The translations under genes and the position numbers were made by a program. From positions 71,022 to 135,021 of the forward strand of contig CAWDHZ010000014.1 of the NCBI GenBank assembly GCA_963802225.1: 64,000 nucleotides of DNA. The letters are read 5' to 3'. Position 1 is the first letter of the stretch. The number at the start of each line of letters is the position of its first letter. This DNA is from an uncultured delta proteobacterium. Lineage in GTDB: Bacteria; Desulfobacterota; Syntrophia; Syntrophales; UBA2192. Positions 11,998 to 52,654 of this stretch are shown here, in pieces. Under the pieces are notes generated by a model. It made no database searches, was not told the DNA's origin, and was given only the letters and a program-made list of their open reading frames with translations.

Positions 11998-13251
11998 GAT
12001 CGGTATCTCCCTGAAAGGACAAACCTCCTCGTCCCCCTTTCGCAAAGGGGGGAAGGGGGATTTAATTCTTGTTTCTTCGATGATCCCTGCGTCCTTGTCC
12101 CCCCGCCCCGAGAGGTTGATGACGATGATCCGGTCGCTCTTCAGCGTGGGCGCAAGCTTCATGGCGTAAGCGATCGCGTGGGCGCTCTCCATGGCGGGGA
12201 TGATCCCCTCGCAGGCGCACAGCGTGCGGAAGGCCTCCAGGGCCTCTCCGTCCTCGACGGAGACGTAGTCGGCCCGCCCCGTTTTCTTGAAATAGCTGTG
12301 CTCGGGCCCCACCCCCGGGTAGTCGAGCCCCGCCGCCACCGAGTGGGCCTCGCGGATCTGGCCCGTGTTATCTTGTAAGAGGTAGGTCTTGTTGCCGTGA
12401 AGCACGCCGATACGCCCCGCCGAGATGGAGGCCGAATGCTTCCCCGTGGCGATCCCGAGACCCGCCGCTTCGACGCCGATCAGCTTCACGTTTTCGTCGT
12501 TGCGGAAGGGGTAGAAGATCCCCATGGCGTTGCTCCCGCCGCCCACGCAGGCGATGATGCAGTCGGGCAGGCGCCCCTCCTGCTTGAGGATCTGCCGCCT
12601 CGTCTCGCGGCCGATGACGCTCTGGAAATCCCTGACCATCATCGGGTAGGGGTGGGGGCCCGCCACGGAGCCGATGATGTAGAAGGTGTCGCGGACGTAG
12701 GTCACCCAGTGGCGCATGGCCTCGTTCATGGCGTCCTTGAGGGTGGCCGACCCGGCGGTGACGGGAACCACCTCGGCGCCGAGGATCTTCATTCGCAGCA
12801 CGTTGGGGGCCTGGCGGCGGATGTCCTCCTCGCCCATGAACACGCGGCACTCCATCCCGAAAAGCGCCGCCACGGTGGCCGTGGCCACCCCGTGCTGGCC
12901 GGCGCCCGTCTCGGCGATGACGCGCCGCTTGCCCATGCGCCGGGCGAGCAGGGCCTGGCCGAGGGTGTTGTTGATCTTGTGGGAGCCCGTGTGGTTGAGG
13001 TCCTCGCGCTTCAGGTAGATCTTCGCCCCGCCGAGCTTTTCCGTGAGGTTTTTCGCCAGGTACAGCGGCGTTTCCCTTCCCGAGTATTGCCGGAGGTAGT
13101 AGTGCAACTCCTCGCGAAAGGCCTTGTCCTTCCGGCTCTGCCGGTAGGCGGCCTCCAGCTCCAATAGGGCCGGCATGATCGTCTCGGCCACGTACCGGCC
13201 GCCAAAAACCCCGAAATGCCCTTTCCTGTCGGGCAGCGATGGCATCTTCAC
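11998..13251 (-). CDS. trpB: Tryptophan synthase beta chain (no stop before trpA)
   Basis: [49 protein letters not shown]. Confidence 0.95.
12032..12063. repeat. GC palindromic repeat (TCCCCCTTT-N3-AAAGGGGG..GGGGATTT family)
   Basis: tccccctttcgcaaaggggggaagggggattt; related copies at 16551-16727, 18251-18367, 21010-21092, 22793-22825, 24160-24206, 52576-52654. Confidence 0.85.
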
Positions 13252-18231: not shown

Positions 18232-18379
18232 TTTTTCTTCCTTCCGGGCTTCCCCCTTTCATAAAGGGGGACCGGGGGCGCATCCCGTCAGGGTGCGCAA
18301 CCATGTCTGGTTCCTTCCTTGCCGGGCCGCCCCGCGAAGCGGAACAGGGCGGCAAAAAGGGGGATTTGATTCTGTTGTC

Positions 18380-18496: not shown

Positions 18497-18574
18497 TTAT
18501 GGCAGCAGGCAGACCCCTCCTATGAAGTTCCACCACCACCAGCTGTTTGTTGAAAAAATTGCTCTGCTCACCAT
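18497..18574 (-). CDS. trpL: trp operon leader peptide MVSRAIFSTNSWWWWNFIGGVCLLP (25 aa)
   Basis: Four consecutive TGG codons, GGAG RBS, lies between a promoter and terminators upstream of trpE; absent from the ORF track. Confidence 0.92.
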   Translation of the reverse strand: MVSRAIFSTNSWWWWNFIGGVCLLP

Positions 18575-18654: not shown

Positions 18655-19221
18655 TTAATAATAGAGATTCGGCGACTGGACCTTTTCTTTCTCATCAATG
18701 GAAATCCCCTCCTGTTCCAGCAGCGCCCGCTTCATGGCAAGTCCTCCCTGGTATCCGCCGAGCCTTCCGTCGGAGCAGATCGCCCGGTGGCAGGGGATGA
18801 CGATGGGGAATGGATTTGTCGCCAGGGCGTTGCCCACAGCACGGGCGCCCTTGGGAACGCCCAGATGGGCTGCGATTCTCCGGTACGTGCTCACGGAGCC
18901 CCGCGGGATGCCATATTCCGCCAGAAGGACTCTCTGCTGAAACGGGGGACAGAGATCGAGCCGCACATGCCCGAGCGCAAAACGGACATCGGCACCGTCG
19001 AGACACGCCTCGATCCGCCTTGCCAGATCGTCGATGAGGCTGCAGGAGAATGGGAGCGAATCCGGGAACTGTTCCTTCAGGCTCATTTCTGCCGGCTGCC
19101 CCGGTCTAGAGATCAGGATCTGCCGGACCATGGGTTTGTGTGACCGGGTTTCCCACAGGATGACCGCGGGGCCGAAGCGCGTTCTGTGCACGATATGGCA
19201 ACATGGCTTTTCCCTTTGCAT
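18655..19221 (-). CDS. ogt: Methylated-DNA--protein-cysteine methyltransferase
   Basis: IPRGSVSTY, ARAVGNALATNP.PIVIPCHR, GGYQGG...K..LL..E. Confidence 0.9.
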   Translation of the reverse strand: MQREKPCCHIVHRTRFGPAVILWETRSHKPMVRQILISRPGQPAEMSLKEQFPDSLPFSCSLIDDLARRIEACLDGADVRFALGHVRLDLCPPFQQRVLLAEYGIPRGSVSTYRRIAAHLGVPKGARAVGNALATNPFPIVIPCHRAICSDGRLGGYQGGLAMKRALLEQEGISIDEKEKVQSPNLYY

Positions 19222-19388
19222 AAATCCTATCCCCGTGCCTTCAGCACCAGCCGCTCGTTTCAGGCGGTCCTTGATCGCCCGCATCGAAGAAAACGATTCC
19301 ACGCTTGCCCCGGCAAAGCAACGGGGTGGCTCCTTGACGGTGCCACCCCGTTCACTGACCCGTGGGAAAACAGAAACATTCCCGATGG

Positions 19389-20024
19389 CTAGAAGCGATA
19401 CTTCAGCCCCACCGTGATCATGTGATTGGTGAGGTCCCCGTCGCCGGTATCGAAGCCGTACGAACATTGGACGTAGCGATAGCCTACGTCGATGGCCCAT
19501 TGGGGATTAATCACAAAATCGGCCCCGAGGAGGAACTGCCAGGCGAAGTCGTCCGCTGTCTGGTTCAGGATCCGGGAGAGGGACCCCGTGCCCGAACCGG
19601 ACGTTTCGCCCCAGGACCAGCCGATCCCCAGGCCGACATAGGGCTGGAACCAGTTGACGGGATACCGCAGTAACACATTCAGGAACAAGTTGTTCGTCGT
19701 GATGTCGCCGGAGTTGATCCTGGAGGCGCCCACCGCCTGGTTTTCGAAGTCGTTTGACGTGTAGAAATACTCCAGCTCCACGGCGATATACTGCATCTGG
19801 GGCAGGATATAGCCTCCTTTCACGCCCGCCACATACCCGCTATCGAGGCCGATATCCCCGGATCCGGCGGACCCCCCGGACACCTCCAGGTCATCGGGCA
19901 TGGTGTAACCGCCAAAGATCCCCACGTAACCGCCGGTTCCAGCCGCCGCAGCATTCCCTGCGGGAACAAAGAGCAGCAGGAAAGCGACGACTGCCCAAAG
20001 CGCATATCCTGTCCACTTCTTCAT
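19389..20024 (-). CDS. Outer-membrane beta-barrel protein (OmpW/porin-like)
   Basis: Signal peptide MKKW..AAA, QPYVGLGIG, FAWQ..LGAD, DVGYRY, C-terminal GLKYRF. Confidence 0.85.
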   Translation of the reverse strand: MKKWTGYALWAVVAFLLLFVPAGNAAAAGTGGYVGIFGGYTMPDDLEVSGGSAGSGDIGLDSGYVAGVKGGYILPQMQYIAVELEYFYTSNDFENQAVGASRINSGDITTNNLFLNVLLRYPVNWFQPYVGLGIGWSWGETSGSGTGSLSRILNQTADDFAWQFLLGADFVINPQWAIDVGYRYVQCSYGFDTGDGDLTNHMITVGLKYRF

Positions 20025-20229
20025 CACGCAACCTCCTTTTTCGTGGTTTATGGTTCGATCGCCACGAGCGAACACTCATGGCGAGACATCCAATGGAATT
20101 TCTGCAGCACTGCAGGCTTGGGTCCGGATCGGTAGCGATCAGGTGTTTCGGATACGACGTATGGGAAAGGTCAATTCATGGGTAGGATAAAGGCGGCGCA
20201 ACGCCCTGTCAAGAAAAATACGGGTCCCC

Positions 20230-20997
20230 TCAGCCCTTCCTGTTTTCCTGCCGGATTAGCTCCTCCAGCGCCTTCGCGCCCTGTTGAACGACAAGCGGTT
20301 TCACGGTGCCGATGGCCCTCTCTTGGAGGTCCAGGATTTCGGATGCATGGGGGTTCCCCGCGATAATCTGCGCATAGAGCTGCGGATGCGAGAAAAGATT
20401 CTCGACGGCCGCGAGCCTTGCCCGGAAAAGCGGTGTCGAGAAACGCTCCAGTTCCTCCTGCGAAATCCCGGCCTCACGGATCGAGAGCCCCAGGACGAGC
20501 GTGTTCAGGTGATTCAGCGCCTGGACGACGGCCATGATCTCGTCGTGCCGCTCCGGCGTTGTCTCGATGAGATTTGCGCCCCCTTGCCCAAGTACATCCC
20601 GCACCCAAGGGGGCCATCTGTCGCCCCTTGCCGGGCACAGGACGATGTTCTGCCCTTCCAGGGACGGCACTCCCGGACCGAACAGCGGGTGAAGGCCGAT
20701 GACCTCCGAGGCCGATGCTTCCAGCATGGCCCGCACCGGCCCCGCCTTCAGGGAGGTGAGATCCATGAGGAGAGAGTTCGTCTTCATGTGCGGCCCCACC
20801 TCGCGGATGACGGCTTGAGTCACCCCGATGGGCACGCTCACGATGACGACGGGGCAGGTTGCCGCCATCTCTGCGGGGCGAAGGCCGCCTGTTTGTCCCG
20901 ACGCGTGGACGGGGTAGCCCGCCTGCTCGAAGAACCCGGCAAACCAGCGGCCGATACCACTGACGCCCCCAATGATGCCGATGGGAAACTTTTCCAT
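20230..20997 (-). CDS. tyrA: Prephenate dehydrogenase
   Basis: GIIGG.SGIGRWF, DLTSLK, HPLFGP, HDEIMAVVQALNH. Confidence 0.9.
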   Translation of the reverse strand: MEKFPIGIIGGVSGIGRWFAGFFEQAGYPVHASGQTGGLRPAEMAATCPVVIVSVPIGVTQAVIREVGPHMKTNSLLMDLTSLKAGPVRAMLEASASEVIGLHPLFGPGVPSLEGQNIVLCPARGDRWPPWVRDVLGQGGANLIETTPERHDEIMAVVQALNHLNTLVLGLSIREAGISQEELERFSTPLFRARLAAVENLFSHPQLYAQIIAGNPHASEILDLQERAIGTVKPLVVQQGAKALEELIRQENRKG

Positions 20998-21107
20998 ATT
21001 TCTTTTCTCTCACCCTCCTTTGAAAAAGGAGGGTCGGGGAGGATTTGCCATTGGAAGAAAATCCCCCTGTATCCCCCTTTATAAAAGGGGGATGATAAGA
21101 ATGCGAT

Positions 21108-22160
21108 TCATCGCACAGCCCTCTGTCTCAGCAGATGATCCGCCAGGACCAGGCAGACCATGGCCTCGCAAACGGGGACGATGCGGGGGATGACGCAGGC
21201 GTCGTGCCTGCCCCGCACCGTGATTTTTACCGGGGTTCCCCGGGCGTCGATGGTTTCCTGCTCCATGGCGATGGAGGCGATGGGTTTGCACGCCGCCCGG
21301 ATTACGATTTCCTGCCCCGTCGTGATCCCCGCAAGCACTCCGCCCGCGTGATTGGTCTTGAACCCGTCGGGGCCGATGGGATCGTTGCACCGCGATCCTC
21401 TCATCCGCGCCGCCTCGAACCCGGCGCCGATCTCGACGCCCTTCACCGTCCCGATGCTCATGAGGGCCCCGGCCAGTTCAGCGTCGATCTTGTCGAAGAC
21501 GGGCTCTCCGAGCCCCGCCGGGCCGCCCGTGACGCGGATCTCCACGATGCCGCCGAGGCTGTCGCCCTCGCCCCTCACCTCTTCCAGCTTCTGCTCCATC
21601 CGCTTTGCCGCCTCGGGGTCGGGGCACAGCAGGCGGTTTGCGCCGATGGCATCCCTCGACCAGGTCTCGATGCCGATGCCGCCCAGCTCCACGGTACAGC
21701 CCAGGACATAAAGCCCTTCGCGGGTGAGGAGCTTGCGGGCAACGGCGCCAGCGGCCACGCGGGCCGCCGTCTCGCGCCCCGAGGCACGGCCGCCGCCAAG
21801 GGGATCCCGGATGCCGTATTTTTTCAGATAGGTGAAATCCCCGTGGCCGGGCCGGAAGACGTCTCGAAGATCGTCGTATGCCTCGCTGTCGGCGTCGCTG
21901 TTTCGGATGAGAAGAGCGATCGGTGTGCCCGTCGTCTCTCCTTCGAAGACCCCGGAGAGGATCTCCACGCGGTCTTTTTCTTTTCTTGACGTGGAGGCTT
22001 TGTGACCGCCCGGCTTGCGCCGATTGAGCTCCGCCTGGATGTCGGCCTCGCCGAGAGCGAGCCTCGGCGGGCAGCCGTCGATGACAGCCCCGATGGCCTT
22101 CCCGTGCGATTCCCCGAACGTGGTGACCCTGAAGAGCACGCCGAAGGTGTTACCGGACAT
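21108..22160 (-). CDS. aroC: Chorismate synthase
   Basis: [38 protein letters not shown]. Confidence 0.97.
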
Positions 22161-22728
22161 GGGGCCGCCTCCTCTTCCGTTTCTTTTTCAGTTTCTTGTC
22201 TGCATCCATCCGATCGTCTCCCAGCCGCCCGGCGATCTCGGCCGCAATCCCGGCAGGATCCTTACCCGCCGTGCCGACGACAACGTCGGCGACAGCCCCG
22301 TAAACCGGCAGGCGCTTCGCCAGGACCTCTTCGATCTCCGCCAGCGTCCCGGCCCCGGTGAGCGATGGACGCTGAAGCGCGCCGCTGCGATCCCTGCTCA
22401 TTCGAAGGGCCAGGATCCTTGCGTCGGCCTGAAGCCAGACGAACCGGCCCCCTGCCCTGAGCATGGACACGTTGTCGGGATCCATGACGGCGCCGCCCCC
22501 TGTCGCGATGACGACCTCATCGAGACCGGAGAGCTCCGAGATGACTGTTTTCTCCACCTCACGAAAGGCCTGCCAGCCGCTTGCCGCGACGATTTCCCGG
22601 ACGGTCCTGCCTGTCTTCGCGAAGATCATCCGGTCCGTGTCGAAAAAAGGACGGCCCAAAAGTCTCGCCAGCTCCCGTCCTGCCGATGTCTTGCCGCTTG
22701 CGCGGTATCCGATCAAGATGATGTTCAT
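22150..22728 (-). CDS. aroK: Shikimate kinase
   Basis: [29 protein letters not shown]. Confidence 0.93.
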
Positions 22729-22826
22729 GCAATAACCGGGTATCGGGTACAGGGTATCGGGTATCGGGTGAAAACAAAAAGAGACATCTTGACCCCCCCT
22801 CTATCCCCCTTTATGAAAGGGGGAAG

Positions 22827-24107
22827 TCAAACGGGCTGATAAAGCTTCCCCAACTCGTCCCAGAAACCGGGAAACGATTTTCCGACACAGCCCGGGTTGC
22901 GGATCCGCATGCCGGGGACACAGAGACCCAGCACGGCAAAGCTCATGGCGATCCGGTGATCGTTGTAGGTCTCGATCTCGGCTCCGCGCGGCGTGCCTCC
23001 CGTGATGACGAGACCGTCGCCGGTTTCCTCGGCCCGGATGCCCGTCTTCGCAAGCTCCGTCACGAGTGCCTCCAGGCGGTTGCTCTCCTTGATGCGAAGG
23101 TGCGCCACATTGCGAATGATGGTCCGCCCCGGGCGCAGGGCCGCAAGGACGGCAAGGGTGGGCACCATGTCGGGCAGATCCTCCATGGAGGCCGTGAAAT
23201 CGCCCGCGATGAGCCTCCCCCCCGAAACTTCGATCCACCGGTCCGTGGCAGAAACGCCGCAACCGAGTTCTTTCAAGTACCTGAGGAATCGCACATCCCC
23301 CTGGTGCGTCCAGAAGTTCGTGTTTGTGACCCGGACGGTTCCGCCACAGAGAGCCGCCGCGAGGAAAAAGTAGGACGCGCTCGACAGATCCCCTTCGACG
23401 AGGTAGCGGCATCCCCGGTAGCCATGCCCGCTCTTTATGGAAAAATGATTCTCGTCATGCTTCTCCACGGGGACCCCGAAGGTTTTCATCACCGCCCGGG
23501 TCATCTCCACATAGGGGCGTGACACGGCGGAGCCGTGGATCTCGACTTCCACATCCCCTGCGGCATAGGGCGCCGCGATCAGGATCGAGGAGACATACTG
23601 GCTGCTCTCGATATCCCGGAATATGACCCGCCCGCCCCGAAGCGTGCCGCCGTGGACGGTTACAGGGGGAAACCCGCCGGTGCGCCGGCAGGTGCTGGAC
23701 ACCCCGAGGCTCCGGATCCCCTCGAGCAGAGGCTGCAGGGGTCTCTCGCACAGGCGCGGGTCTCCCGTCAGGGTGATGTCGCCCGACCCGAGGGCCGCGA
23801 CGCTGACAAGAAACCGCATGGCCGTCCCGTTGTTCCCCAGGTAGAGTTCCATGCCGGGGATTTGGATGCGCCCGCTCGTTCCCGTGACGATCATGTCCCT
23901 GTCCGAGGTGACGATCCCGGCACCCAGACGCCGGAGACTCTCCACGAGAACCTGCGTGTCTTCCGAGACGAGCGTGTTTCTCAGGATCGACTTCCCCTCG
24001 GCAAGCGACGCGATGACGAGCGCCCTCTGGGTGTAGCTCTTGGAGCCGGGAACCTGCAACTCGGCATTCACGCGCTCGAGCGGCCTGATTTCCATTACCT
24101 CAGCCAT
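22827..24107 (-). CDS. aroA: 3-phosphoshikimate 1-carboxyvinyltransferase
   Basis: PGSKSYTQR, GNNGTAMRF, SSQYVS, LRIKESNRL, DHRIAM, KSFPGF. Confidence 0.97.
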   Translation of the reverse strand: MAEVMEIRPLERVNAELQVPGSKSYTQRALVIASLAEGKSILRNTLVSEDTQVLVESLRRLGAGIVTSDRDMIVTGTSGRIQIPGMELYLGNNGTAMRFLVSVAALGSGDITLTGDPRLCERPLQPLLEGIRSLGVSSTCRRTGGFPPVTVHGGTLRGGRVIFRDIESSQYVSSILIAAPYAAGDVEVEIHGSAVSRPYVEMTRAVMKTFGVPVEKHDENHFSIKSGHGYRGCRYLVEGDLSSASYFFLAAALCGGTVRVTNTNFWTHQGDVRFLRYLKELGCGVSATDRWIEVSGGRLIAGDFTASMEDLPDMVPTLAVLAALRPGRTIIRNVAHLRIKESNRLEALVTELAKTGIRAEETGDGLVITGGTPRGAEIETYNDHRIAMSFAVLGLCVPGMRIRNPGCVGKSFPGFWDELGKLYQPV

Positions 24108-24264
24108 CGCCTCTCCCTTGTCGACTCCGCATGTTCATTCCTGCTCGATCCTTTGCGTCAAATCCCCCTCTTTCCCCTTTTGCAAAGGGGGATGAAAGGG
24201 GGATTTTCCCCTTGTCTTGTTTCTTGTTGTTTTGCCCCCGACCCGATACCCGATACCCTATACC

Positions 24265-25083
24265 CTATCCCCTGTCTTTCGTCAGGGTCGTCTTCACCAC
24301 CCGCGTCATCAGTTCGACCGGAGGCTCGAGTCCCGTCCAGATGCGGATCTGCTCCGCCCCCTGGCGGACGAACATGGAAAGCCCCGTGATCACACCGCAC
24401 CCGGCCGCTCTTGCCTCCCGCAGCAGGCGCGTCTCGAGAGGGTTGTAGATCGTCTCCACGACCCATCGGAACCGGGCCAGGTGCCGCCGATCGACGGGAG
24501 TCTCATCCATAAGCGGGCGCATCCCGACAGGGGTTGCGTTGATGAGCACCTCGGCCTCCACCGTGCCCAGATGGGCCAACGGCTGCGCGCCGCACCCGAA
24601 CCATCTCGCCAGGGATTCGGCCCTGTCGCGGCGGCGGGCAAAGACAATCGGAATGCCTCCCTCTCTCAGCATGCCGTAGACGGCGGCCCGTGCGGCGCCG
24701 CCAGCGCCCAGCACGGCAACGGTCTTGCCTTCCAGGGGAAATTGCTCCTGCATGGCTGCAGTGAGACCCGTCCAGTCCGTGTTCGAGCCCCGGAGCTTCC
24801 CGCCTTCGTTTTTAATCGTGTTGACGGCGCCGATGGCGCGGGCATCTTCGTCCACCTCGTCGAGGAAGTCCATGACGGCCCCCTTCACGGGCAGGGTCAC
24901 GCTCACGCCGGCAAGCGGCTTCTCCCGGATCATCCGGACCGAGAGCTCCAGGCTTTCCACGCAGTGCGCCTCGTAGCGGGCACGGATCCCCATGGCCCCG
25001 AAGGCCGCGTTGATCATCAGCGGCGAGAGACTGTGCCCCACGGGGTTGCCGAAGAGTGCGTATTGTCGAATGCTTTCTTTCAT
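24265..25083 (-). CDS. aroE: Shikimate dehydrogenase
   Basis: GNPVGHSLSP, SVTLP.K, IGAVNT, NTD, LGAGGAARA, INATPVGM. Confidence 0.95.
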   Translation of the reverse strand: MKESIRQYALFGNPVGHSLSPLMINAAFGAMGIRARYEAHCVESLELSVRMIREKPLAGVSVTLPVKGAVMDFLDEVDEDARAIGAVNTIKNEGGKLRGSNTDWTGLTAAMQEQFPLEGKTVAVLGAGGAARAAVYGMLREGGIPIVFARRRDRAESLARWFGCGAQPLAHLGTVEAEVLINATPVGMRPLMDETPVDRRHLARFRWVVETIYNPLETRLLREARAAGCGVITGLSMFVRQGAEQIRIWTGLEPPVELMTRVVKTTLTKDRG

Positions 25084-25766
25084 GACGACCCCTGTAAAAT
25101 CCCCAGGAGCTTTTTCATCTCCCCTGCCGTCAGTTGTCCCGGCGCCGACTCGGCTCCTTCTTCGAGGCTCGCATAGCTCATGCAGGACCCCAGCAGCGGC
25201 GCCGCCACGCGGCTCAGGCGCCCCTTCCCGCCCATGCAGAACGCGATGATGTCCTGGCCCATCTCCAGGGCCTGCGGGATGAGATCCAGCACCCTGAGGT
25301 TGTCCTCCGCCGTTTCCGCCAGGGTGACGATCTTCACGATGTCGGCCCCGAGAAGGCGGCAGGCCTTGAGCCTTTTCATCAGGGTTTGCCGGGAAGGGGT
25401 TCCTTTCAGATCGTGATGGGAGACGATAAGCCCCGTTTTGCCTTTCTTCGCGCGGATCGCCTTGCCCAGTCTGCCCACGGCCGCAGCACCCGTTCGCGCC
25501 TCGATATCCACGTAGCGTGCACCCAGATCGACCGCCTCGCGAAGCAGCGCCGTGCGCTTGTCTTCGCATCTCGCAAAGAACCCTCCCTCGTCCCTGCGGC
25601 GGTTTGTCACCAGGATCCTTTCCTTCCCGGCGTAAAGGAGCAGGGGCAGGTCAGGTTGCCCGATTCGGTCGATCCGCAATTCGACGAGATCCGCCTCGGG
25701 CAGCGCCCGCGCGAGCAGGCACAGGGCCTCCTCATTCGTTTCGGGCACGATGGATATGCAGATCAT
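25080..25766 (-). CDS. aroD: Type I 3-dehydroquinate dehydratase
   Basis: ELRID, TNR...EGG, IVSHH, IVKIV, MG..G.LSR, APGQL. Confidence 0.93.
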   Translation of the reverse strand: MICISIVPETNEEALCLLARALPEADLVELRIDRIGQPDLPLLLYAGKERILVTNRRRDEGGFFARCEDKRTALLREAVDLGARYVDIEARTGAAAVGRLGKAIRAKKGKTGLIVSHHDLKGTPSRQTLMKRLKACRLLGADIVKIVTLAETAEDNLRVLDLIPQALEMGQDIIAFCMGGKGRLSRVAAPLLGSCMSYASLEEGAESAPGQLTAGEMKKLLGILQGSS

Positions 25767-26842
25767 GGTTTCTCCGCCTCTCCGGGGTAGGACCCCAGCA
25801 CCTTGAGGAAAGCCGTCTTGCGTTGCAGTTTTCGAAGACCGTCCTTCACCGGTTGCTCGTCCGAATGACCCTCGATGTCGATGAAGAAGAGATACCGCCA
25901 CATCCGATCCCGCGCCGGGTGGGATTCGATGCGCAGCAGGTTGATCCCCGCCGTTGCAAACGGCTCGAGCGCCGCGTGCAGGGCCCCCGGCCGGTGTTGC
26001 GTCGAGAAGAGGATCGATGTCTTGTCCCGCCCCGTCGGGCTGTTGGATCCTCTGCCGATGACGATGAAGCGTGTCGTGTTGGCCGGGTGGTCCTCGATGC
26101 CTTCCTCGACGATGGGAAGCCCGTGGATTTCCGAGGCCAGGCGGCTGCCGATTGCGGCGGCCTCCCGGTCCTGAAGGGCCTTCAGCACGGCCGCCGAGGT
26201 GCTCTCCGTCTCGACGGGGACCGCCCGGGGAAGATTCTTCGCCAGCCACTGCCGGCACTGGGCCAGCGCCTGGGGATGGGAATAAACCCGTCGAAGCCTT
26301 CCCTTTGCCCCCCGGGCCATGAGGCAGTGGGAGATGCGAAGGAAGATCTCGCCCCGGATCGAAAGCGGTGTTGCGATCAGCCTCTCGAGGGTGACCCTCA
26401 CGGGCCCCTCCACCGAGTTTTCCAGCGGGACGACCCCGAGGTCGGCCTTTTGTTTTTCCGCAGCGTCGAAGACCGCGCCGATCGTCTCCTGCGGCGCCAT
26501 GCGGGCGCTTCCTCCGAAGCGATCGAGAGCCGCCAGGTGGGCAAACGAGCCTTCCGGTCCCAGGCAGGCCACCGCGAGGGGCGCCTGGAGCGCCCGCGAC
26601 GACGACAGGATCTCCCGGTAGATGTGCCCCAGCGTCTCGACGGCGAGGGGGCCCTCGTTGAGGGCTGCGATTTCATTCAGGACGCGCGACTCCTGGGCGG
26701 GGTCGTAGACGCCGATCCCCTCTTGCCCCTTGATCTTTCCCACTTCAAGGGACAGGCGGGCGCGCTCGCTGAGGAGCCGCACGATGTCGCGGTCCTTGTG
26801 CCGGATCTCGCGCCGGATGTTCTCGATGCCCGTTTTCTTCAT
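25763..26842 (-). CDS. pheA: Chorismate mutase / prephenate dehydratase
   Basis: N-terminal CM domain, LGPEGSF, ENSVEG, SHPQALAQC, NTTRF, ACT domain IESHP. Confidence 0.96.
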   Translation of the reverse strand: MKKTGIENIRREIRHKDRDIVRLLSERARLSLEVGKIKGQEGIGVYDPAQESRVLNEIAALNEGPLAVETLGHIYREILSSSRALQAPLAVACLGPEGSFAHLAALDRFGGSARMAPQETIGAVFDAAEKQKADLGVVPLENSVEGPVRVTLERLIATPLSIRGEIFLRISHCLMARGAKGRLRRVYSHPQALAQCRQWLAKNLPRAVPVETESTSAAVLKALQDREAAAIGSRLASEIHGLPIVEEGIEDHPANTTRFIVIGRGSNSPTGRDKTSILFSTQHRPGALHAALEPFATAGINLLRIESHPARDRMWRYLFFIDIEGHSDEQPVKDGLRKLQRKTAFLKVLGSYPGEAEKP

Positions 26843-27933
26843 GCCTTGAGTTCCTCGATGGTTTGCTGTACGAGCTCCAGCGCAACGCCGCCGTTGACAA
26901 AGGGCATGCCGGGTTTGCGCAGAAGGACAAAGTGGATCTTGCCGCCCGCCTTCTTCTTGTCCGCCGCCAGGTGCGACAGGATGCGCGCCGTATCCAGGCT
27001 CTGCGGGATCCGGACGGGAAGGCCCGCCCGCCCGATTGCGGTAACGACCCGCTCCCGGTCCTCGGCGGAGAGGTAGCGCTGCCTCTCCGAGATGAGCGCC
27101 GCGGCGACCATGCCCATGGCCACCGCCTCGCCGTGCGCAATGGCATATTGCGACTCGGCCTCGATGGCGTGGCCTACAGTGTGGCCGAAGTTGAGGATGC
27201 GGCGCAACCCTTTTTCCGTCTCGTCGACCTCGACGACACCCTTCTTGATCCGGCAGGACGTGGAGACGAGGCGCTCCAGGAGGGCGGGATCCCTGCCCTG
27301 CAGGGCCTCGGCCCCTTCCTCGATGGCCGCCAGGAGTTCGGGGTCTTCGATGATCCCGTACTTCACGATCTCCGCCAGCCCGTTGGTGAACTCCCTGGCC
27401 GGGAGCGTGTCGAGGAAGGCCAGGTCAATGAAGACGGCCCGCGGCTGGAGGAAGGTGCCCAGCATGTTCTTTCCCGCCGGGAGATCGACGCCGGTCTTTC
27501 CCCCGATCGAGCTGTCCACCTGGGCAAGAAGCGTCGTGGGAATCTGCACGCAGGGGATGCCCCGCATGTAGATGGAGGCGACAAAACCCGCCACATCGCC
27601 CACGACCCCGCCGCCCAGGGCGATCAGGCCCGAGGTCCGGTCGGCGCCTGACTCCAGCAGTCGCCCCGCCAGCTCCACGCAGGTGCCGATGGTCTTCGAG
27701 GCCTCCCCGGCAGGGAAGACGATCGTTTCGACGGCAAGCCCGTTTTCGCGCAGCACGCCGAGGACCCTTTCCCCGTGGAGAGCCGACACGTTGTCGTCCG
27801 TCACGACGAACCATCGGGAGGCCCCGCCGTTCTTGGTGAGGACGGGGGCGACCCGGTCGAGGATGCGGCAGCCGATGTGGATGTCGTAGGAGGCGTTGAG
27901 CCGCCTGTCGAGATTCACCCTGATCCGGTTCAT
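26839..27933 (-). CDS. aroB: 3-dehydroquinate synthase
   Basis: GEASK, LGGGVVGD.AGF, PTTLLAQVDSSIGGKTG, LNFGHT.GHAIE, HGEAV. Confidence 0.96.
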   Translation of the reverse strand: MNRIRVNLDRRLNASYDIHIGCRILDRVAPVLTKNGGASRWFVVTDDNVSALHGERVLGVLRENGLAVETIVFPAGEASKTIGTCVELAGRLLESGADRTSGLIALGGGVVGDVAGFVASIYMRGIPCVQIPTTLLAQVDSSIGGKTGVDLPAGKNMLGTFLQPRAVFIDLAFLDTLPAREFTNGLAEIVKYGIIEDPELLAAIEEGAEALQGRDPALLERLVSTSCRIKKGVVEVDETEKGLRRILNFGHTVGHAIEAESQYAIAHGEAVAMGMVAAALISERQRYLSAEDRERVVTAIGRAGLPVRIPQSLDTARILSHLAADKKKAGGKIHFVLLRKPGMPFVNGGVALELVQQTIEELKA

Positions 27934-28958
27934 GACGGCACCCTCTGCATCCGCTGCATGGCGGTCTCGAGCACCGCAAGATCTTCCATGAGCTGGTAGA
28001 ACTTCTCGGGCTTCAGGGACTGCATCCCGTCGGAGACGGCCTTTTCGGGCTCGGGGTGGACCTCGACGATGATCCCGTCGGCCCCCACGGCGACGGCCGC
28101 CCGGGCCAGGGGCGCCACGTACTTCCAGTGGCCCGCCGCGTGGCTCGGGTCCACGATCACCGGGAGGTGGGAGAGCTCTTTGAGGACGACAACGGCCGAG
28201 AGATCCAGGGTGTTTCGCGTGGCCGTCTCGAAGGTGCGGATCCCCCGCTCGCAGAGGATGACCTGACTGTTGCCCTCGGAGAGGATGTACTCGGCCGACA
28301 TGAGGAGCTCCTCGATCGTCATCATCATCCCCCGCTTGAGCAGGACGGGCTTGCGCGCCTGGCCCACAGCCTTCAGGAGCGCGAAGTTCTGGGCGTTGCG
28401 CGCGCCGACCTGGAAGATGTCGGCGTAGGCCTCCACGAGATCCACGTCGGCGGGATTTACGACCTCCGTCACGATGGGAAGCCCCGTATGCTCGCGGACC
28501 TTCTTCAGGAGCTTGAGCCCCTCCTCTTCCAGGCCTTGGAAACTGTAGGGCGAGGTCCGGGGTTTGAAGGCGCCGCCCCGGAGGATATGGGCGCCGGCCT
28601 TCTTTGCCACCCAGGCGCATTCCATGAGCTGCTCCTCCGTCTCGACGGCACAGGGCCCCGCCATGACGATGAACCGCGGCCCGCCGATCGCGAGCTCGCC
28701 CACGCGGACGATCGTATCGGCTTCCCGGAATTCGCGGCTGGCAAGCTTGTAGGGCTTGAGTATGGGCACCACGATCTCCACCCCCGGCAGGTGGGCAACG
28801 GATTTGATCTGCTCGCGGCCCCGGGCATCCCCCACGGCGCCGATGATCGTCTTCTCCGTCCCGCGGGAGAGGTGAGCCCGGTACCCGACAGACTCGATCC
28901 ACTCGACAACCCGGTCGACCTGTCCGTCCGTTGCGTTTTTCTTCATCACGATGATCAT
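27930..28958 (-). CDS. aroF: DAHP synthase (type I-beta) with N-terminal ferredoxin-like regulatory domain
   Basis: MIIVMK start with GGAGG RBS; [40 protein letters not shown]. Confidence 0.95.
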
Positions 28959-28973
28959 AATTGCAGTACCTCC

Positions 28974-29012
28974 AATGAAAAGGGCCATGATGGCTGCCGC
29001 CCCCATGGCCCT
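28974..29012 (-). terminator. Second attenuator hairpin of the aro leader, directly before the aroF RBS
   Basis: AGGGCCATG-GGGGCGGCAGCCAT-CATGGCCCTTTTCATT on the minus strand. Confidence 0.7.
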
Positions 29013-29019
29013 CCTCGAT

Positions 29020-29066
29020 GAAAACAAAAAAGCCATGGGCAGCGTCTTTCGATCTACCCATGGCTT
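29020..29066 (-). terminator. First attenuator terminator of the aro leader
   Basis: AAGCCATGGG-TAGATCGAAAGACGCTG-CCCATGGCTT-TTTTGTTTTC on the minus strand. Confidence 0.85.
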
Positions 29067-29095
29067 CGGTTTGGCTTATTCTTTCGTGCTTAAGT

Positions 29096-29185
29096 CTAAG
29101 TCCTCCTCAGCGACGGGCAGACCTGTCCGTAAAAATAATAGGTGCTAAACCAGAAGCCAAGATTACGGAGTTTCATGCTGTCCAT
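29096..29185 (-). CDS. aro operon leader peptide MDSMKLRNLGFWFSTYYFYGQVCPSLRRT (Phe/Trp/Tyr-rich; alternative start 29176)
   Basis: 7 aromatic codons in a 9-codon run, lies between a TTGACA promoter and terminators upstream of aroF. Confidence 0.85.
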   Translation of the reverse strand: MDSMKLRNLGFWFSTYYFYGQVCPSLRRT

Positions 29186-29213
29186 CACGAAGGTTTCCTT
29201 CAAAAAGTGGCCC

Positions 29214-29242
29214 ATGAAAACACGCTCGGGCGCCCCTGTCAA
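29214..29242 (-). promoter_or_regulatory. Putative sigma70 promoter of the aro operon
   Basis: TTGACA-N17-TTTCAT with an extended TG element. Confidence 0.55.
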
Positions 29243-29314
29243 CAGAAATTTTTCGCCATGCCGACCAGGGGTCCCTGAAACCCTTGAGGGGCGGGCCTTT
29301 AGCGGCACGCCGGA

Positions 29315-30148
29315 TCACATGAGCGTATCGCCCTGCGAGAGCTTGAAGCGGATGGGGATCTCCACCCATGCATCCACGACGGCACCCATGCGCCGTGCCG
29401 GTTCGAACCGCCAGGACCTCACGGCCTCGAGGGCCGAATCGTCCAGCGAGGCGTAGCCGGAGGAACGCTTGACCCGGACGGCCCCGATCCGGCCGTCGGC
29501 ACGGACCTCGGCCGCGATCAGCACGTCGCCCTCGTAGCCCCGCTGCCTCGCAGCACCAGGGTAGGCGGGGGGCCGGTTCTCGCGGTAGCGGGGCATGGCC
29601 TCCGAGTAGCCCTCCTGGGCGCTGGCGCCCGTTTGCCGCTGCCCCCAAGGCACCTCACCTGCCGAGGAACCCCGGCCCGCTGCGGCCGCGGCAACGCCTC
29701 CCTTCGCGGTCTCGACGGAAACGCTCGTCTCCATCGCCTCCCGCTGCAGGGGCCGGCTGGCAACGGCTTCGGTAATGACGGTTTTTTCCATGGCCTTCGG
29801 AACGATGGCGGGGGCGGCCTTTGGTTGATGGACCTGCTTTTTCTTGAACTCGTCGGCCTGGGCGGCCCCGTTGCCGTTCTCGGGACCCGGCATCACCGTC
29901 ACCAGGGAGACCCGGACGACCCCTTCGTCGCCCGCCGTGGGGAAACTGAAGAAGGGGTTTGCCACGGCGAACAGGACAAAGGCCAGGACACCCGCGTGCA
30001 GAACCGCAGACAGGGCGATGCCGGGCAGCATGCTCTTCCCGGGGCGGCGCACCGCCGCCCGGACCCTCTGCGCGGGGCCGGGGATTGCCATGCTCAGATC
30101 AGCGGGGCATTCTCTTCTCCATGTCGTGACATTCATGTGCACTGCCAT
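29315..30148 (-). CDS. tonB: Energy transducer TonB
   Basis: TM anchor SAVLH, low-complexity linker, PAYP..ARQRGYEG.V, SSGY..LD.SAL.AV..WRF.PA; start uncertain. Confidence 0.9.
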   Translation of the reverse strand: MAVHMNVTTWRRECPADLSMAIPGPAQRVRAAVRRPGKSMLPGIALSAVLHAGVLAFVLFAVANPFFSFPTAGDEGVVRVSLVTVMPGPENGNGAAQADEFKKKQVHQPKAAPAIVPKAMEKTVITEAVASRPLQREAMETSVSVETAKGGVAAAAAGRGSSAGEVPWGQRQTGASAQEGYSEAMPRYRENRPPAYPGAARQRGYEGDVLIAAEVRADGRIGAVRVKRSSGYASLDDSALEAVRSWRFEPARRMGAVVDAWVEIPIRFKLSQGDTLM

Positions 30149-30170
30149 CCTTGCTGCTGCTTTGACCGGA

Positions 30171-32216
30171 TCAGAAGTATAACGAAACCCCTCCCCGAAA
30201 GTTGATCTCCGGAGCAGGGTAATAGCTCAACCCCGAAAAGGTTTCGTAGCCCACAGGGACATAACTCTTGTTGGTAGATTCTCCACCCCCACGAAGGCGC
30301 TCGGCTTCGCAACCCCGAACATCTTCCAGTCGGGCTGATAGCGCAGGGTCAGGTTGACGATCGTGTAGCTGTCGAGCTTCGTCGAGCTGTTGTTGTTGTC
30401 GGAGCCGAAGTACTGTTCCCCCACGTACCGGACCTCGGGCCTCAGCGTGAGGCTCCAGGGCAGGTAAATCTCGAGGGCCGCATTGGCCATGTGGTTCGGC
30501 ACGAGCGGGACGTCCTTGTCCCTGTTCGCCCCCTCGCGGAAGATAGGCCTCCTGGAAGGTGTAGTTGGCATAGAGCCGCGCCAGTTTCCGGAACTGCCAG
30601 TCCAGCGAGAATTCGACGCCCTGGTGACTCGTCTTGTCCAGGTTCTCGTTTCGGAACGTGACGGGGTTGTAGCTGATCTCGTCCTCCATGTCGATGAGGT
30701 AGAACGTGAGCCCCAGCTTGAGATCCTTCATGGGGCTGACCTGCGTGCCCACTTCGTAGCTCTTGCCCGTCTCCTTCTCGAGGTCCGTCAGGAAGCTGTC
30801 GAAGGGAAAGGCGTAGTAGGATGCCTGCTGGTCCAGGGAGGGGAAGCGGTAGATCGTGGCGTACTTTCCCCATACCTTCGACTTCTCCCCGAAGAGGTAC
30901 GTGAGCGAGCCCTCCCAGGCCGTCCCCTTGTGAACTTTCTCGGCGTCGAAGACATTGACACCCGTCGCGAGGTTTGTCTCGCTGCCGTTTACATCGGCCC
31001 GCTCCGTCCGCGCACCGAGGGCCAGGATGAGGTCCTTCAGGATGCTGAACTCGTCGCGGGCATACAGCCCCATCGTCTGCCTCTTGAGCTCCGCCTCGTA
31101 GGTCCTGATTGCCTGCGAGCGGTTCGCGAAGGTGTCCTTGTCGAGCTTGTCCTGGTAGAAGTCAAACCCGACGGTGAGCTTGTTGTCGAAGCCGAAGAGT
31201 TTCTTGTCGAGGATATAGCGCGGGGTGGCGCCCACCGTATCGATGTCGATCTTCGTGAACGAGGCGAAGGAGGCGTAGTTGGAGGTCACCTCCCGCCTGC
31301 CGTAGATCAGGTTGGCGTCGAGACGGCCGAAGGAGCCCAGGATGGTCTTGACGAGAAGGTTGGCGTCGAAAAAGGTCGAGCTCGCATCGTCATCGGGGTT
31401 CTGGGCCTGCTTTCGGTTGGCGTTAACCTGGGCCTGCGTGAGGGCGCCCGGGAACTGGTTGTCGGTCTTGTTGGCTGTGATCCCCAGGGAGACGTCAAGA
31501 GCGTCGGTGGGGTTGTAGCCGATGCTGCCGCCTGCGCTTTCCGTGGTGAACTTCGAGCGGTCCCGGTACCCGCTGCTGGTGAGTACTTCGCCGTTGAGCG
31601 CATAATAGACCTTGTCGGCCGAGCCCCGGATGCCGGCGCGGCCGTTGTAGGTGTTGTAGCTTCCGCCGATGAAGGTCGCATCGCCCTTCGGCTTTCCCTC
31701 GCCTCGCTTGGTGATGATGTTGATGGAGCCGGCGATGGCCGAATCGCCGTAGAGAACGCTGTTGGCGCCCCGCACGACCTCGATCCGGTCGATCTCCGAG
31801 AGCGGGATCTCGAGCCAGTTGATCCCCGATATATCGGGACGGTTCAGGCGCCGGCCGTCGAGCATGACCACGTTGCGAAGGTAGCCCGCCTCGGAGCCGA
31901 AGGCCCGCATGTCCACGATGGACTGGGAGGCATTGCCGCTGTAGCTGGTGACGTTGATGCCCACAAGCCCCGTCAAAACCTCGGGAACGCTCGTGGCGCC
32001 CGATTTCTGGATGTCGTCGGCGGTGATGACGGTCACGTTGGCAGGGACTTTCCGGACTTCCTGGGCGTCGCGGGTGGCCGTGACGACCACCTCACCCATC
32101 CGGTACTCGGGCCGGGCGGTCTCCGGCGCCGCCTGCGAATAAACAGACCCCGGCGCCGAGATCCCTGCGATGAGCAAGACAAAAAGAACCAGTTCCCTTT
32201 GTGAAAAAGCTTTCAT
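30171..32216 (-). CDS. btuB: TonB-dependent receptor, probable cobalamin receptor (compensating frameshifts near 30545 and 30280)
   Basis: Signal peptide, EVVVTATR TonB box, IDRIEVVRG.NSVLYG, C-terminal aromatic F; downstream of a cobalamin riboswitch. Confidence 0.88.
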   Translation of the reverse strand: MKAFSQRELVLFVLLIAGISAPGSVYSQAAPETARPEYRMGEVVVTATRDAQEVRKVPANVTVITADDIQKSGATSVPEVLTGLVGINVTSYSGNASQSIVDMRAFGSEAGYLRNVVMLDGRRLNRPDISGINWLEIPLSEIDRIEVVRGANSVLYGDSAIAGSINIITKRGEGKPKGDATFIGGSYNTYNGRAGIRGSADKVYYALNGEVLTSSGYRDRSKFTTESAGGSIGYNPTDALDVSLGITANKTDNQFPGALTQAQVNANRKQAQNPDDDASSTFFDANLLVKTILGSFGRLDANLIYGRREVTSNYASFASFTKIDIDTVGATPRYILDKKLFGFDNKLTVGFDFYQDKLDKDTFANRSQAIRTYEAELKRQTMGLYARDEFSILKDLILALGARTERADVNGSETNLATGVNVFDAEKVHKGTAWEGSLTYLFGEKSKVWGKYATIYRFPSLDQQASYYAFPFDSFLTDLEKETGKSYEVGTQVSPMKDLKLGLTFYLIDMEDEISYNPVTFRNENLDKTSHQGVEFSLDWQFRKLARLYANYTFQEAYLPRGGEQGQGRPARAEPHGQCGPRDLPALEPHAEARGPVRGGTVLRLRQQQQLDEARQLHDRQPDPALSARLEDVRGCEAERLRGGGESTNKSYVPVGYETFSGLSYYPAPEINFRGGVSLYF

Positions 32217-52575: not shown

Positions 52576-52654
52576 AAATCCCCCTCATCCCCCTTTTACA
52601 AAGGGGGAAGATTTAGACCCCCTCCTTTGGAAAAGGAGGGCTGGGGAGGATTTT
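52576..52654. repeat. Double copy of the GC palindromic repeat
   Basis: aaaatccccctcatccccctttttacaaagggggaag ... ccctcctttggaaaaggagggctggggaggatttt. Confidence 0.85.

Follow-up and report, generated by a model that had tools for sequence, protein, structure and literature searches.

A candidate leader-peptide attenuator with Phe, Trp, and Tyr codons upstream of the aromatic operon of an uncultured Syntrophales bacterium

The Aromatic Operon and Its Leader

The window analyzed here is a stretch of 64,000 nucleotides from an uncultured delta proteobacterium of the order Syntrophales (GenBank assembly GCA_963802225.1, contig CAWDHZ010000014.1, positions 71,022 to 135,021 of the forward strand), and the element in question is a candidate leader-peptide attenuator that precedes its operon for aromatic amino acid biosynthesis. 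The operon lies on the minus strand and opens with aroF, which encodes a 3-deoxy-d-arabino-heptulosonate 7-phosphate (DAHP) synthase of type I-beta with an N-terminal ferredoxin-like domain (27933-28973; Pfam PF00793 and PF18152; NCBIfam NF006421, 517 bits); its ribosome-binding site, GGAGG, is at 28973-28969 and its ATG at 28958. The other genes, all assigned with Pfam, are aroB (26842-27933), pheA (CM-PDT-ACT, 25766-26842), aroD (25083-25766), aroE (24268-25083), aroA (22830-24107), aroK (22153-22728), aroC (21111-22160), and tyrA (20233-20997), and the whole series aroF-aroB-pheA-aroD-aroE-aroA-aroK-aroC-tyrA is presumably co-transcribed.

Regarding the first step of the pathway, aroF is the sole DAHP synthase detected in the genome, which is 90.7% complete: the other PF00793 match is a KDO8P synthase according to NCBIfam, and searches of the same genome for PF01474 and PF01959 gave zero matches. 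With a single DAHP synthase, one entry enzyme must answer to all three aromatic products.

The leader element occupies 29242-28977 of the minus strand, upstream of aroF, and comprises a promoter-like site, a short upstream open reading frame (uORF), and two hairpins, T1 and T2. The promoter-like site, as read from the sequence, consists of TTGACA (29242-29237), a 17-nt spacer ending in TG, and TTTCAT (29219-29214); TTGACA is also found upstream of the leader in order-level relatives. The uORF (29188-29096, 29 codons) has a GTG at 29188-29186 in frame with an ATG at 29185-29183, ends with TAG at 29098-29096, and is preceded by a putative ribosome-binding site, AAGGA (29200-29196), 7-10 nt from its start; its predicted product is MDSMKLRNLGFWFSTYYFYGQVCPSLRRT. 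The regulatory codon run, TTC TGG TTT AGC ACC TAT TAT TTT TAC (29155-29129), reads FWFSTYYFY, so that seven of its nine codons are aromatic, namely 3 Phe, 3 Tyr, and 1 Trp.

Such a run had been picked out by an earlier reading of this DNA made from the letters alone (the sequence-only reading), and the minus strand bears it out; the Pfam assignments likewise agree with its claim that one leader stands ahead of the whole shikimate-pheA-tyrA operon. The range it gave, 29020-29242, is incomplete, as it stops before the second conserved hairpin, T2.

Alternative Base Pairings

Six regions of the leader take part in the predicted pairings. Region 1 (GUGAUGGACAG, 29188-29178) spans the uORF start codon and pairs with CUGCCCGUCGC of region 2, a helix present in the minimum free energy fold; region 2 (GGUCUGCCCGUCGC, 29123-29110) is the switch strand, with either region 1 or region 3 as its partner. 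Region 3 (29066-29051) contains the 5′ arm of T1, AAGCCAUGGGUAG (29066-29054), and the antiterminator stretch GCCAUGGGUAGAUC (29064-29051), while region 4 is the 3′ arm of T1, CUGCCCAUGGCUU (29042-29030), overlapping the U-run UUUUUUGUUUU (29031-29021); T1 thus spans 29066-29030 and is followed by UUUUUUGUUUU. Finally, regions 5 and 6 (29016-28977) form T2, GGGCCAUG...CAUGGCCC (29011-28982) followed by CUUUUC, which directly precedes the aroF ribosome-binding site; the stretch 29016-29001 alternatively pairs with region 4 and its U-run.

As for the energies, the 1:2 duplex has -12.0 kcal/mol and the 2:3 duplex -18.4 kcal/mol, with 13 of 14 positions paired and 3 G-U, which upholds the pairing of GGUCUGCCCGUCGC with GCCAUGGGUAGAUC at 13 of 14 bases put forward in the sequence-only reading; T1 (3:4) has -22.6 to -22.8 kcal/mol, the 4:5 duplex -22.2 kcal/mol, and the T2 hairpin (5:6) -22.3 kcal/mol. 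The 206-nt leader folds with -68.2 kcal/mol (z -3.3), a stability equalled by none of 200 shuffled sequences.

The unconstrained folds of this leader and of its three paralogues in the genome, described below, all contain 1:2, 3:4, and 5:6, and the 2:3 antiterminator forms in all four once region 4 is withheld. Under that constraint the segment from region 2 to region 3 of the aro leader has -31.3 kcal/mol and that of the phe leader -33.0 kcal/mol, with none of 300 shuffles at least as stable in either case; the folds are weaker for the trp2 and trp leaders, for which 51 and 128 of the 300 shuffles, respectively, are at least as stable. Equilibrium folds in which the segment covered by the ribosome was masked still gave T1 and T2 and no antiterminator, because no other helix is as stable as 3:4 and 5:6; since the antiterminator appears only with region 4 withheld, the attenuation argument is a kinetic one, as for classical attenuators.

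Conservation Upstream of aroF

The aroF protein is present in all 41 relatives considered. The best 30 aroF loci, picked by means of the aroF protein and not of the leader motif, are distributed over the genus (16 genomes), the rest of the family (4), and other families of the order (10); each of the 30 has, upstream of aroF, an F/W/Y-rich uORF, the region 2 block GGTCTGCC, and T1, in line with the sequence-only reading, which had suggested looking for such uORFs ahead of aroF orthologues. The block occurs in these loci in two variants, GGTGTGCC and AGTCTGCC. The uORF of one genome of the same genus (G003, locus L011) changes frame owing to a 26-nt tandem duplication among the aromatic codons, which reflects either an error of assembly or natural variation of the leader.

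An alignment of 28 of the 30 loci, with L011 and L026 left out, has its conserved blocks in region 2, in both arms of T1, and in both arms of T2, with GGTCTGCC invariant or nearly so. T1 is paired in 95.6% of the alignment cells, with 3 pairs changed on both sides, and T2 is 100% paired in 27 of the 28 rows, and 3 of its pairs covary, AU being replaced by GC in 8 rows. Pairing is 87.0% for the 2:3 antiterminator, with zero compensatory pairs, 83.0% for 4:5, and 80.5% for 1:2, that is, the start-codon region with region 2. When the partners are slid by 1-3 columns, the overall pairing of each tested structure falls to 28-52%; the predicted alternative helices are therefore supported by conservation and by the slid controls, not by covariation.

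The local hairpin ACGGACAG/CUGCCCGU, proposed in the sequence-only reading as the protector, fared less well: it is weak (-4.4 kcal/mol), paired in 68.4% of the cells, and not conserved beyond the family, and region 2 has a better conserved partner in the uORF start-codon region.

Related Leaders in the Same Genome

A scan of the whole genome, repeated with one mismatch allowed per block, returned exactly four leaders and one chance match inside a coding region. All four are built on the scaffold GGUCUGCC ... GCCRUGGG ... CCAYGG and have a further hairpin. The codon run is the one part to differ in kind among them, and in each case it suits the genes behind it: the aro operon has FWFSTYYFY, trpE has WWWW, a gene for a Phenol_MetA_deg outer-membrane protein has WWRW (the trp2 leader), and a Liv-type ABC transporter has YFAFFSFFGFF (the phe leader).

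The trp leader is also in the window (18623-18385, minus strand): TTGACA (18623-18618) is followed by a uORF from the ATG at 18574 to the TAA at 18499-18497, which encodes MVSRAIFSTNSWWWWNFIGGVCLLP with four consecutive Trp codons (18541-18530) and contains GGTCTGCC at 18515-18508; GGUCUGCC is present, the terminator GCCGUGGG...CCACGG with its U-run lies at 18475-18434, and the second hairpin with UUUUUC at 18411-18385.

The phe leader (G000 C1:141310-141378, minus strand; L031) encodes the Phe-run peptide MYGHQSVGRYFAFFSFFGFFREVCP and precedes an operon for a binding protein, an ATPase, an AMP-binding enzyme, and two permeases, which suggests that this Liv-type operon serves for uptake under Phe regulation and perhaps with Phe specificity; such a combination of Phe leader and Liv-type operon was seen in 5 other genomes. 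The Trp-rich trp2 leader (G000 C3:32955-33036, plus strand; L032) encodes MAGQAHKNIFGWWRWANISAGVCPS, ending in GWWRWANISAGVCPS and its stop codon, and precedes a single gene of the Phenol_MetA_deg family (L032:357-1337), whose product may be a Trp- or indole-related channel. A similar pair of Trp leader and outer-membrane gene was noticed at another locus (L091).

The Wider Family in Desulfobacterota

Within the order, the exact motif is present at least once in 194 of 339 genomes of the order, in 122 of the 204 of high quality, and in 53 of 72 genera, and the reversed-pattern control was 0 in every listed row. A broader scan with the exact pattern, using one genome per species, listed 80 loci among at least 117 matching stretches, which were filtered for a T-rich tail (7 or more T among the 12 nt that follow the match). 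The 43 listed loci that pass all have titles referring to Deltaproteobacteria, Thermodesulfobacteriota, Syntrophales, Smithella, Desulfobacterales, Desulfosarcina, or Desulfarculus; 3 of them are identical in sequence to relatives of the window (one of a same-genus genome). The 37 loci that fail the filter belong mostly to other phyla and were set aside as likely to match by chance; one of them, L107, has a 6-T tail and resembles a genuine Phe leader.

Downstream genes were identified by tblastn with the proteins of this genome and by Pfam. Among the matches listed and the relatives, 51 leaders read before aroF of type I-beta, 49 of them unique, always have Phe and Tyr codons, and F, W, and Y occur together in 46 of the 49; at two further aroF loci (L048 and L066), the codon run could not be read owing to the nearby contig end. 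The remaining first genes, all among the matches listed, are a 383-aa DAHP synthase (2 leaders, F and Y, with W in 1), a DeoC-type aldolase, in one case followed by DHQS-II (2 leaders, F and Y, with W in 1), a pheA-first operon (3 leaders, F and Y, none with W), a livK-like gene (5 leaders, all F only), other Peripla_BP_6 binding-protein genes (2 leaders, Y runs), and, behind 4 leaders with W runs, trpD (2), a Phenol_MetA_deg outer-membrane protein (1), and a TPP/POR_N protein (1). Hence, the codon content tracks the function of the downstream gene across Desulfobacterota.

Some of these loci deserve separate mention. Four leaders from Desulfobacterales (L081, L082, L059, and L102) have the same scaffold and F/Y(/W) codons in front of different first-step enzymes, either a DeoC-type aldolase with DHQS-II, which is the archaeal-type route, or the 383-aa DAHP synthase; the leader thus goes with the pathway step and not with the gene family. 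In Desulfosarcina cetonica JCM 12296, an F/Y leader stands ahead of pheA-aroE-aroA-aroK-aroC (L078). Two Tyr-only leaders, with the runs YSYYYYAY (L075) and YYYYGY (L092), stand before Peripla_BP_6 binding-protein genes, and a WWWW leader (L034) precedes a TPP_enzyme_C/POR_N protein, which we take to resemble the alpha subunit of indolepyruvate ferredoxin oxidoreductase (IorA-like).

Regarding the 49 unique aroF-linked leaders, the 14 codons before region 2 contain on average 1.0 Trp, 3.0 Phe, and 3.6 Tyr. An in-frame start was found in 48 of them and a Shine-Dalgarno-like motif in 40; the predicted peptides are 24-33 aa long, and in 35 leaders the stop codon is 25 nt past the start of region 2. 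With all three residues present in 46 of the 49, the mixed F/W/Y codon run looks selected. A pairing of the codon run GGCUUCUGGUUUAGC with the spacer GCCAAACCGAAGCC, seen by eye in this leader, was rejected after comparison with the 49 leaders: the mean z is -0.2, z falls below -2 in 3 of the 49, and it is 0.1 in this window.

The block GGTCTGCC is read V-C-P in Syntrophales, G-L-P in Desulfobacterales, and in the third frame in two Tyr leaders; it is read in different frames, and selection therefore appears to act on the RNA rather than on the tail of the peptide.

Other Features of the Locus

The 5′ neighbours of the aro leader are a TonB-C gene and a gene for a TonB-dependent receptor; the TonB-domain gene ends at 29315, on the same strand and about 250 nt upstream. 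Between tyrA and the trp leader, the interval 18655-20075 (minus strand) holds two unrelated-looking open reading frames: by eye, that at 19389-20075 has the look of a beta-barrel outer-membrane protein, and that at 18655-19500 ends in a sequence like a methylated-DNA-protein-cysteine methyltransferase. A TTGACA promoter-like site lies downstream of tyrA, near 20210.

A palindromic repeat, CCCC(C/T)TT-n-AA(A/G)GGGG, which looks like a repetitive extragenic palindromic (REP) element, has 152 copies in the genome and 6 in the window, at 12033-12051, 18252-18270, 21073-21091, 22805-22823, 24174-24191, and 52589-52607; three copies are in gaps of the aro operon (aroE/aroA, aroA/aroK, and aroC/tyrA) and one is directly upstream of trpE.

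As for RNA libraries, their reads were seen as Logan contigs from four runs, and such contigs do not show transcription. One contig of 151 nt (X2) matches 28930-29079 with 0 differences, bridging T1, T2, and the aroF start, and another of 340 nt (X3) matches 29084-29400 with 12 differences; neither is proof of transcription. None of the 24 listed sequencing runs contained half of the query words.

Proposed Mechanism and Alternative Explanations

The features expected of a leader-peptide attenuator, the type assigned in the sequence-only reading, are all present in the sequence: a predicted uORF lies between the promoter and the first structural gene, it carries a cluster of end-product codons, the predicted terminator hairpins T1 and T2 with their U-run stand before the structural genes, and an antiterminator that excludes the terminator, recognized by conservation and with zero compensatory pairs, has an upstream strand that a ribosome at the uORF stop would mask. 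What is observed in silico is that these parts exist, that their pairings exclude one another, that they are conserved, and that codon content agrees with the function of the operon. Very probably, therefore, the element is a ribosome-mediated transcription attenuator of the operon that holds the organism's only DAHP synthase, and its best reading is that of an attenuator multivalent for aromatic amino acids, with the chain 1:2/3:4/5:6 set against 2:3/4:5.

From the same parts, we infer that the uORF is translated, that T1 and T2 terminate transcription, that the 4:5 pairing acts as a relay, and that each amino acid elicits a response, in the following manner. Transcription would start at about 29207, and a ribosome would translate the 29-codon uORF. 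If Phe-, Tyr-, and Trp-tRNAs were all charged, the ribosome would reach the UAG and cover the 3′ half of region 2 (about half of it, judging from ribosome footprint sizes); after its release, region 1, with the uORF start codon, would capture region 2, region 3 would pair with 4 (T1) and region 5 with 6 (T2), and transcription would end before aroF. If any of the aromatic tRNAs were scarce, the ribosome would stall in FWFSTYYFY and leave region 2 free to pair with nascent region 3; region 4 and its U-run, thus freed, would pair with region 5, so that both T1 and T2 would be absent and transcription would read through into aroF-aroB-pheA-aroDEAKC-tyrA.

Several points weigh against this interpretation. 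Region 1 is at least 23 nt upstream of the first aromatic codon, so that a single stalled ribosome would not mask it, and a second ribosome or kinetics may be needed to avoid 1:2 during stalling. The 4:5 pairing is inseparable from the palindrome CCATGG shared by both stems, and in the alignment 2:3 has no changes on both sides, its covariation score being reached by 225 of 500 shuffles. Moreover, the relatives are not independent, and the counts therefore overstate the support, and the RNA-library contigs neither show nor exclude termination. A consensus promoter and terminator scan left the predicted aro promoter and T1 uncalled, reporting zero terminators and, in the aroF leader region, only an unrelated promoter-like site; this is explained by the apical part of T1, larger than the 3-8 nt loop of the rule, and by the -10 element being TTTCAT preceded by TG, and the scan was rejected as a test because of these loop-length and -10 rules. 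Finally, the aroF-linked leaders have a single Trp codon on average, 3 of the 49 unique ones are Trp-free, and, according to the accessible text of the review PMC11802643, Tyr availability has no effect on the Phe-Tyr-Phe leader aroR of Corynebacterium glutamicum.

These last points favour a narrower possibility, which is unlikely yet has to be reckoned with: a genuine attenuator that senses only Phe and/or Tyr, its lone Trp codon being too weak and Trp control being left to the WWWW leader of the trp operon. The low mean of Trp codons and the Trp-free leaders agree with it, as does the fact that the trp operon has a leader of its own; in C. glutamicum, aroR responds to Phe and, despite its Tyr codon, not to Tyr (PMC11802643, accessible text), so that the presence of a codon is no proof of sensing. 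However, Trp is kept in 46 of 49 leaders despite changing neighbours (FWF, YWWF, YWF, FWY, FWS, and GWWF), and where it is irrelevant, leaders on the same scaffold do without it: none of the 3 ahead of pheA-first operons has it, nor any of the 5 ahead of livK-like genes. Nor does complementarity between codon run and spacer explain the conservation of Trp, given the z values reported above.

The remaining explanations dispense with amino acid sensing by the uORF. A translation-independent switch of riboswitch, T-box, or TRAP-like type, with a protein or small ligand bound to the RNA and a uORF of no consequence, would account for the nucleotide-level conservation of regions 2 and 3, and translation of the uORF is itself a prediction; it is nonetheless very unlikely, since the codon run is the only systematic difference among the paralogues and matches what the downstream genes make, the in-frame start is kept in 48 of 49 leaders, and the stop spacing is narrow (25 nt in 35 of 49). 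In addition, an Rfam cmscan of 27000-31000, with E values of up to 10 admitted, yielded six matches, all far below the gathering scores, and none to T-box or leader families (Trp_leader, Phe_leader, His_leader, Leu_leader, and Thr_leader). The conservation might also reflect a function of the peptide tail GQVCPSLRRT, as a nascent arrest peptide or a small protein, given that VCPSLRRT is nearly invariant in the genus and common across the order; this is highly improbable, because GTC TGC CC does not vary at its third codon positions either, the frame in which GGTCTGCC is read is a different one in Desulfobacterales (GLPG/VR) and a third one in two Tyr leaders, and the paralogues have their stop codon directly after VCP. 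Just as improbable is that the hairpins are constitutive terminators of the TonB gene, or RNA-stabilizing structures, with aro control located elsewhere: the TonB-domain gene does end on the same strand at a short distance (29315, about 250 nt), but a conserved TTGACA promoter lies between it and the leader, the leader precedes aroF in the relatives whatever the 5′ gene, as well as three other operons in this genome, and both the uORF and the alternative pairing would be left unexplained.

The attenuator interpretation of the sequence-only reading is thus right in kind, and the comparative evidence for it is good, while the three-input OR gate is hypothetical. The fuller proposal has about an even chance of being correct: a modular family of Desulfobacterota attenuators would use one RNA switch (GGUCUGCC / GCCRUGGG, with two chained terminators) and swap codon cassettes (W, F, Y, F+Y, or F+W+Y), the F+W+Y version being a true three-input OR gate. 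If so, where there is only one DAHP synthase, the OR gate would give a single RNA the task that in Escherichia coli falls to three isoenzymes and two repressors, showing how a single shikimate entry enzyme, together with the Phe and Tyr branches, can be coupled to all three products; for an aromatic attenuator, the joint reporting of Phe, Tyr, and Trp by a single uORF would also be a first.

The codon cassette would, moreover, be a readable substrate label for unannotated transporters and channels behind such leaders, with functional hints for the Liv-type binding proteins (Phe-only or Tyr-only leaders) and for the outer-membrane channel and the IorA-like oxidoreductase (Trp-only leaders). The recurring scaffold would amount to a natural codon-swap series and a compact design for synthetic amino acid sensors, and the family would fill a gap in amino acid attenuation for Syntrophales and Desulfobacterales.

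Comparison with Known Systems

The organization proposed here has a short uORF with a run of product codons and mutually exclusive terminator and antiterminator structures chosen by the position of the ribosome, like trpL, pheL, and hisL. The his leader is a chain of six segments, in which A:B, C:D, and E:F compete with B:C and D:E, and it comes nearest to the present layout of 1:2/3:4/5:6 versus 2:3/4:5. Unlike these three leaders, which address one amino acid each, the aro leader has three aromatic amino acids in one run; unlike the enterobacterial leaders, its region 1 covers the uORF start codon and not the regulatory codons, and both 3:4 and 5:6 are terminator-like with U-runs. Multivalence itself is known from the thr (Thr/Ile) and ilv (Leu/Val/Ile) attenuators of E. 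coli, which share with the aro leader the use of codons for several amino acids that depend on the operon; the amino acids are different, and the operon here comprises the common aromatic trunk with the Phe and Tyr branches.

As for aromatic leaders, trpL and pheL each sense one amino acid and the enterobacterial DAHP synthase genes rely on TyrR and TrpR, as given in the accessible text of PMC11802643. The same text describes the aroR leader of C. glutamicum (Phe-Tyr-Phe), upstream of aroF, for which Phe limitation raises transcription; this leader was predicted in PMC4046766, in a species with a second DAHP synthase, as far as the available parts of these sources tell. Both aroR and the aro leader are mixed aromatic-codon leader peptides in front of a DAHP synthase gene, although aroR has 3 aromatic codons and no Trp and belongs to a species with two DAHP synthases, compared here with 7 aromatic codons, Trp among them, a single DAHP synthase, and an operon of nine genes; the likeness is a functional analogy only, set by descriptions and not by sequences. 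According to the accessible text of PMC8632094, the uORFC-13-1 motif upstream of aroF in Acholeplasma has a predicted uORF with Phe codons just before a terminator; it is a prediction for Acholeplasma and environmental sequences only and has Phe codons only, in contrast to the F/W/Y run of the aro leader.

Within the same phylum, Table 7 of a 2005 paper (PMC1173090) lists a database entry, "putative attenuator" (Merino), before the aroA′-aroB′ aromatic supraoperon of Desulfovibrio vulgaris; in the accessible text of that paper, the term "leader peptide" appears nowhere and the sensed amino acids are unstated. The entry resembles the aro leader as a predicted terminator/antiterminator ahead of an aromatic supraoperon, and in Desulfobacterales F/Y(/W) leaders stand before DeoC-type aldolase and DHQS-II genes (L081 and L082). 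The literature searched, with subscription papers and supplements outside its scope and an earlier description therefore possible, held no F/W/Y leader in Deltaproteobacteria, Desulfobacterota, or Syntrophus, no tri-aromatic leader, no such scaffold, and no amino acid attenuation in Syntrophales or Desulfobacterales; Rodionov 2004 (PMC545781) contains neither "aromatic" nor "leader peptide". The sequence-only reading knew of no characterised example of an attenuator for the common aromatic pathway, which needs qualifying in view of aroR, the Acholeplasma motif, and the D. vulgaris entry.

In conclusion, the aro leader appears to be a known mechanism in a new form and the tri-aromatic member of a seemingly modular and codon-swappable attenuator family in Desulfobacterota.

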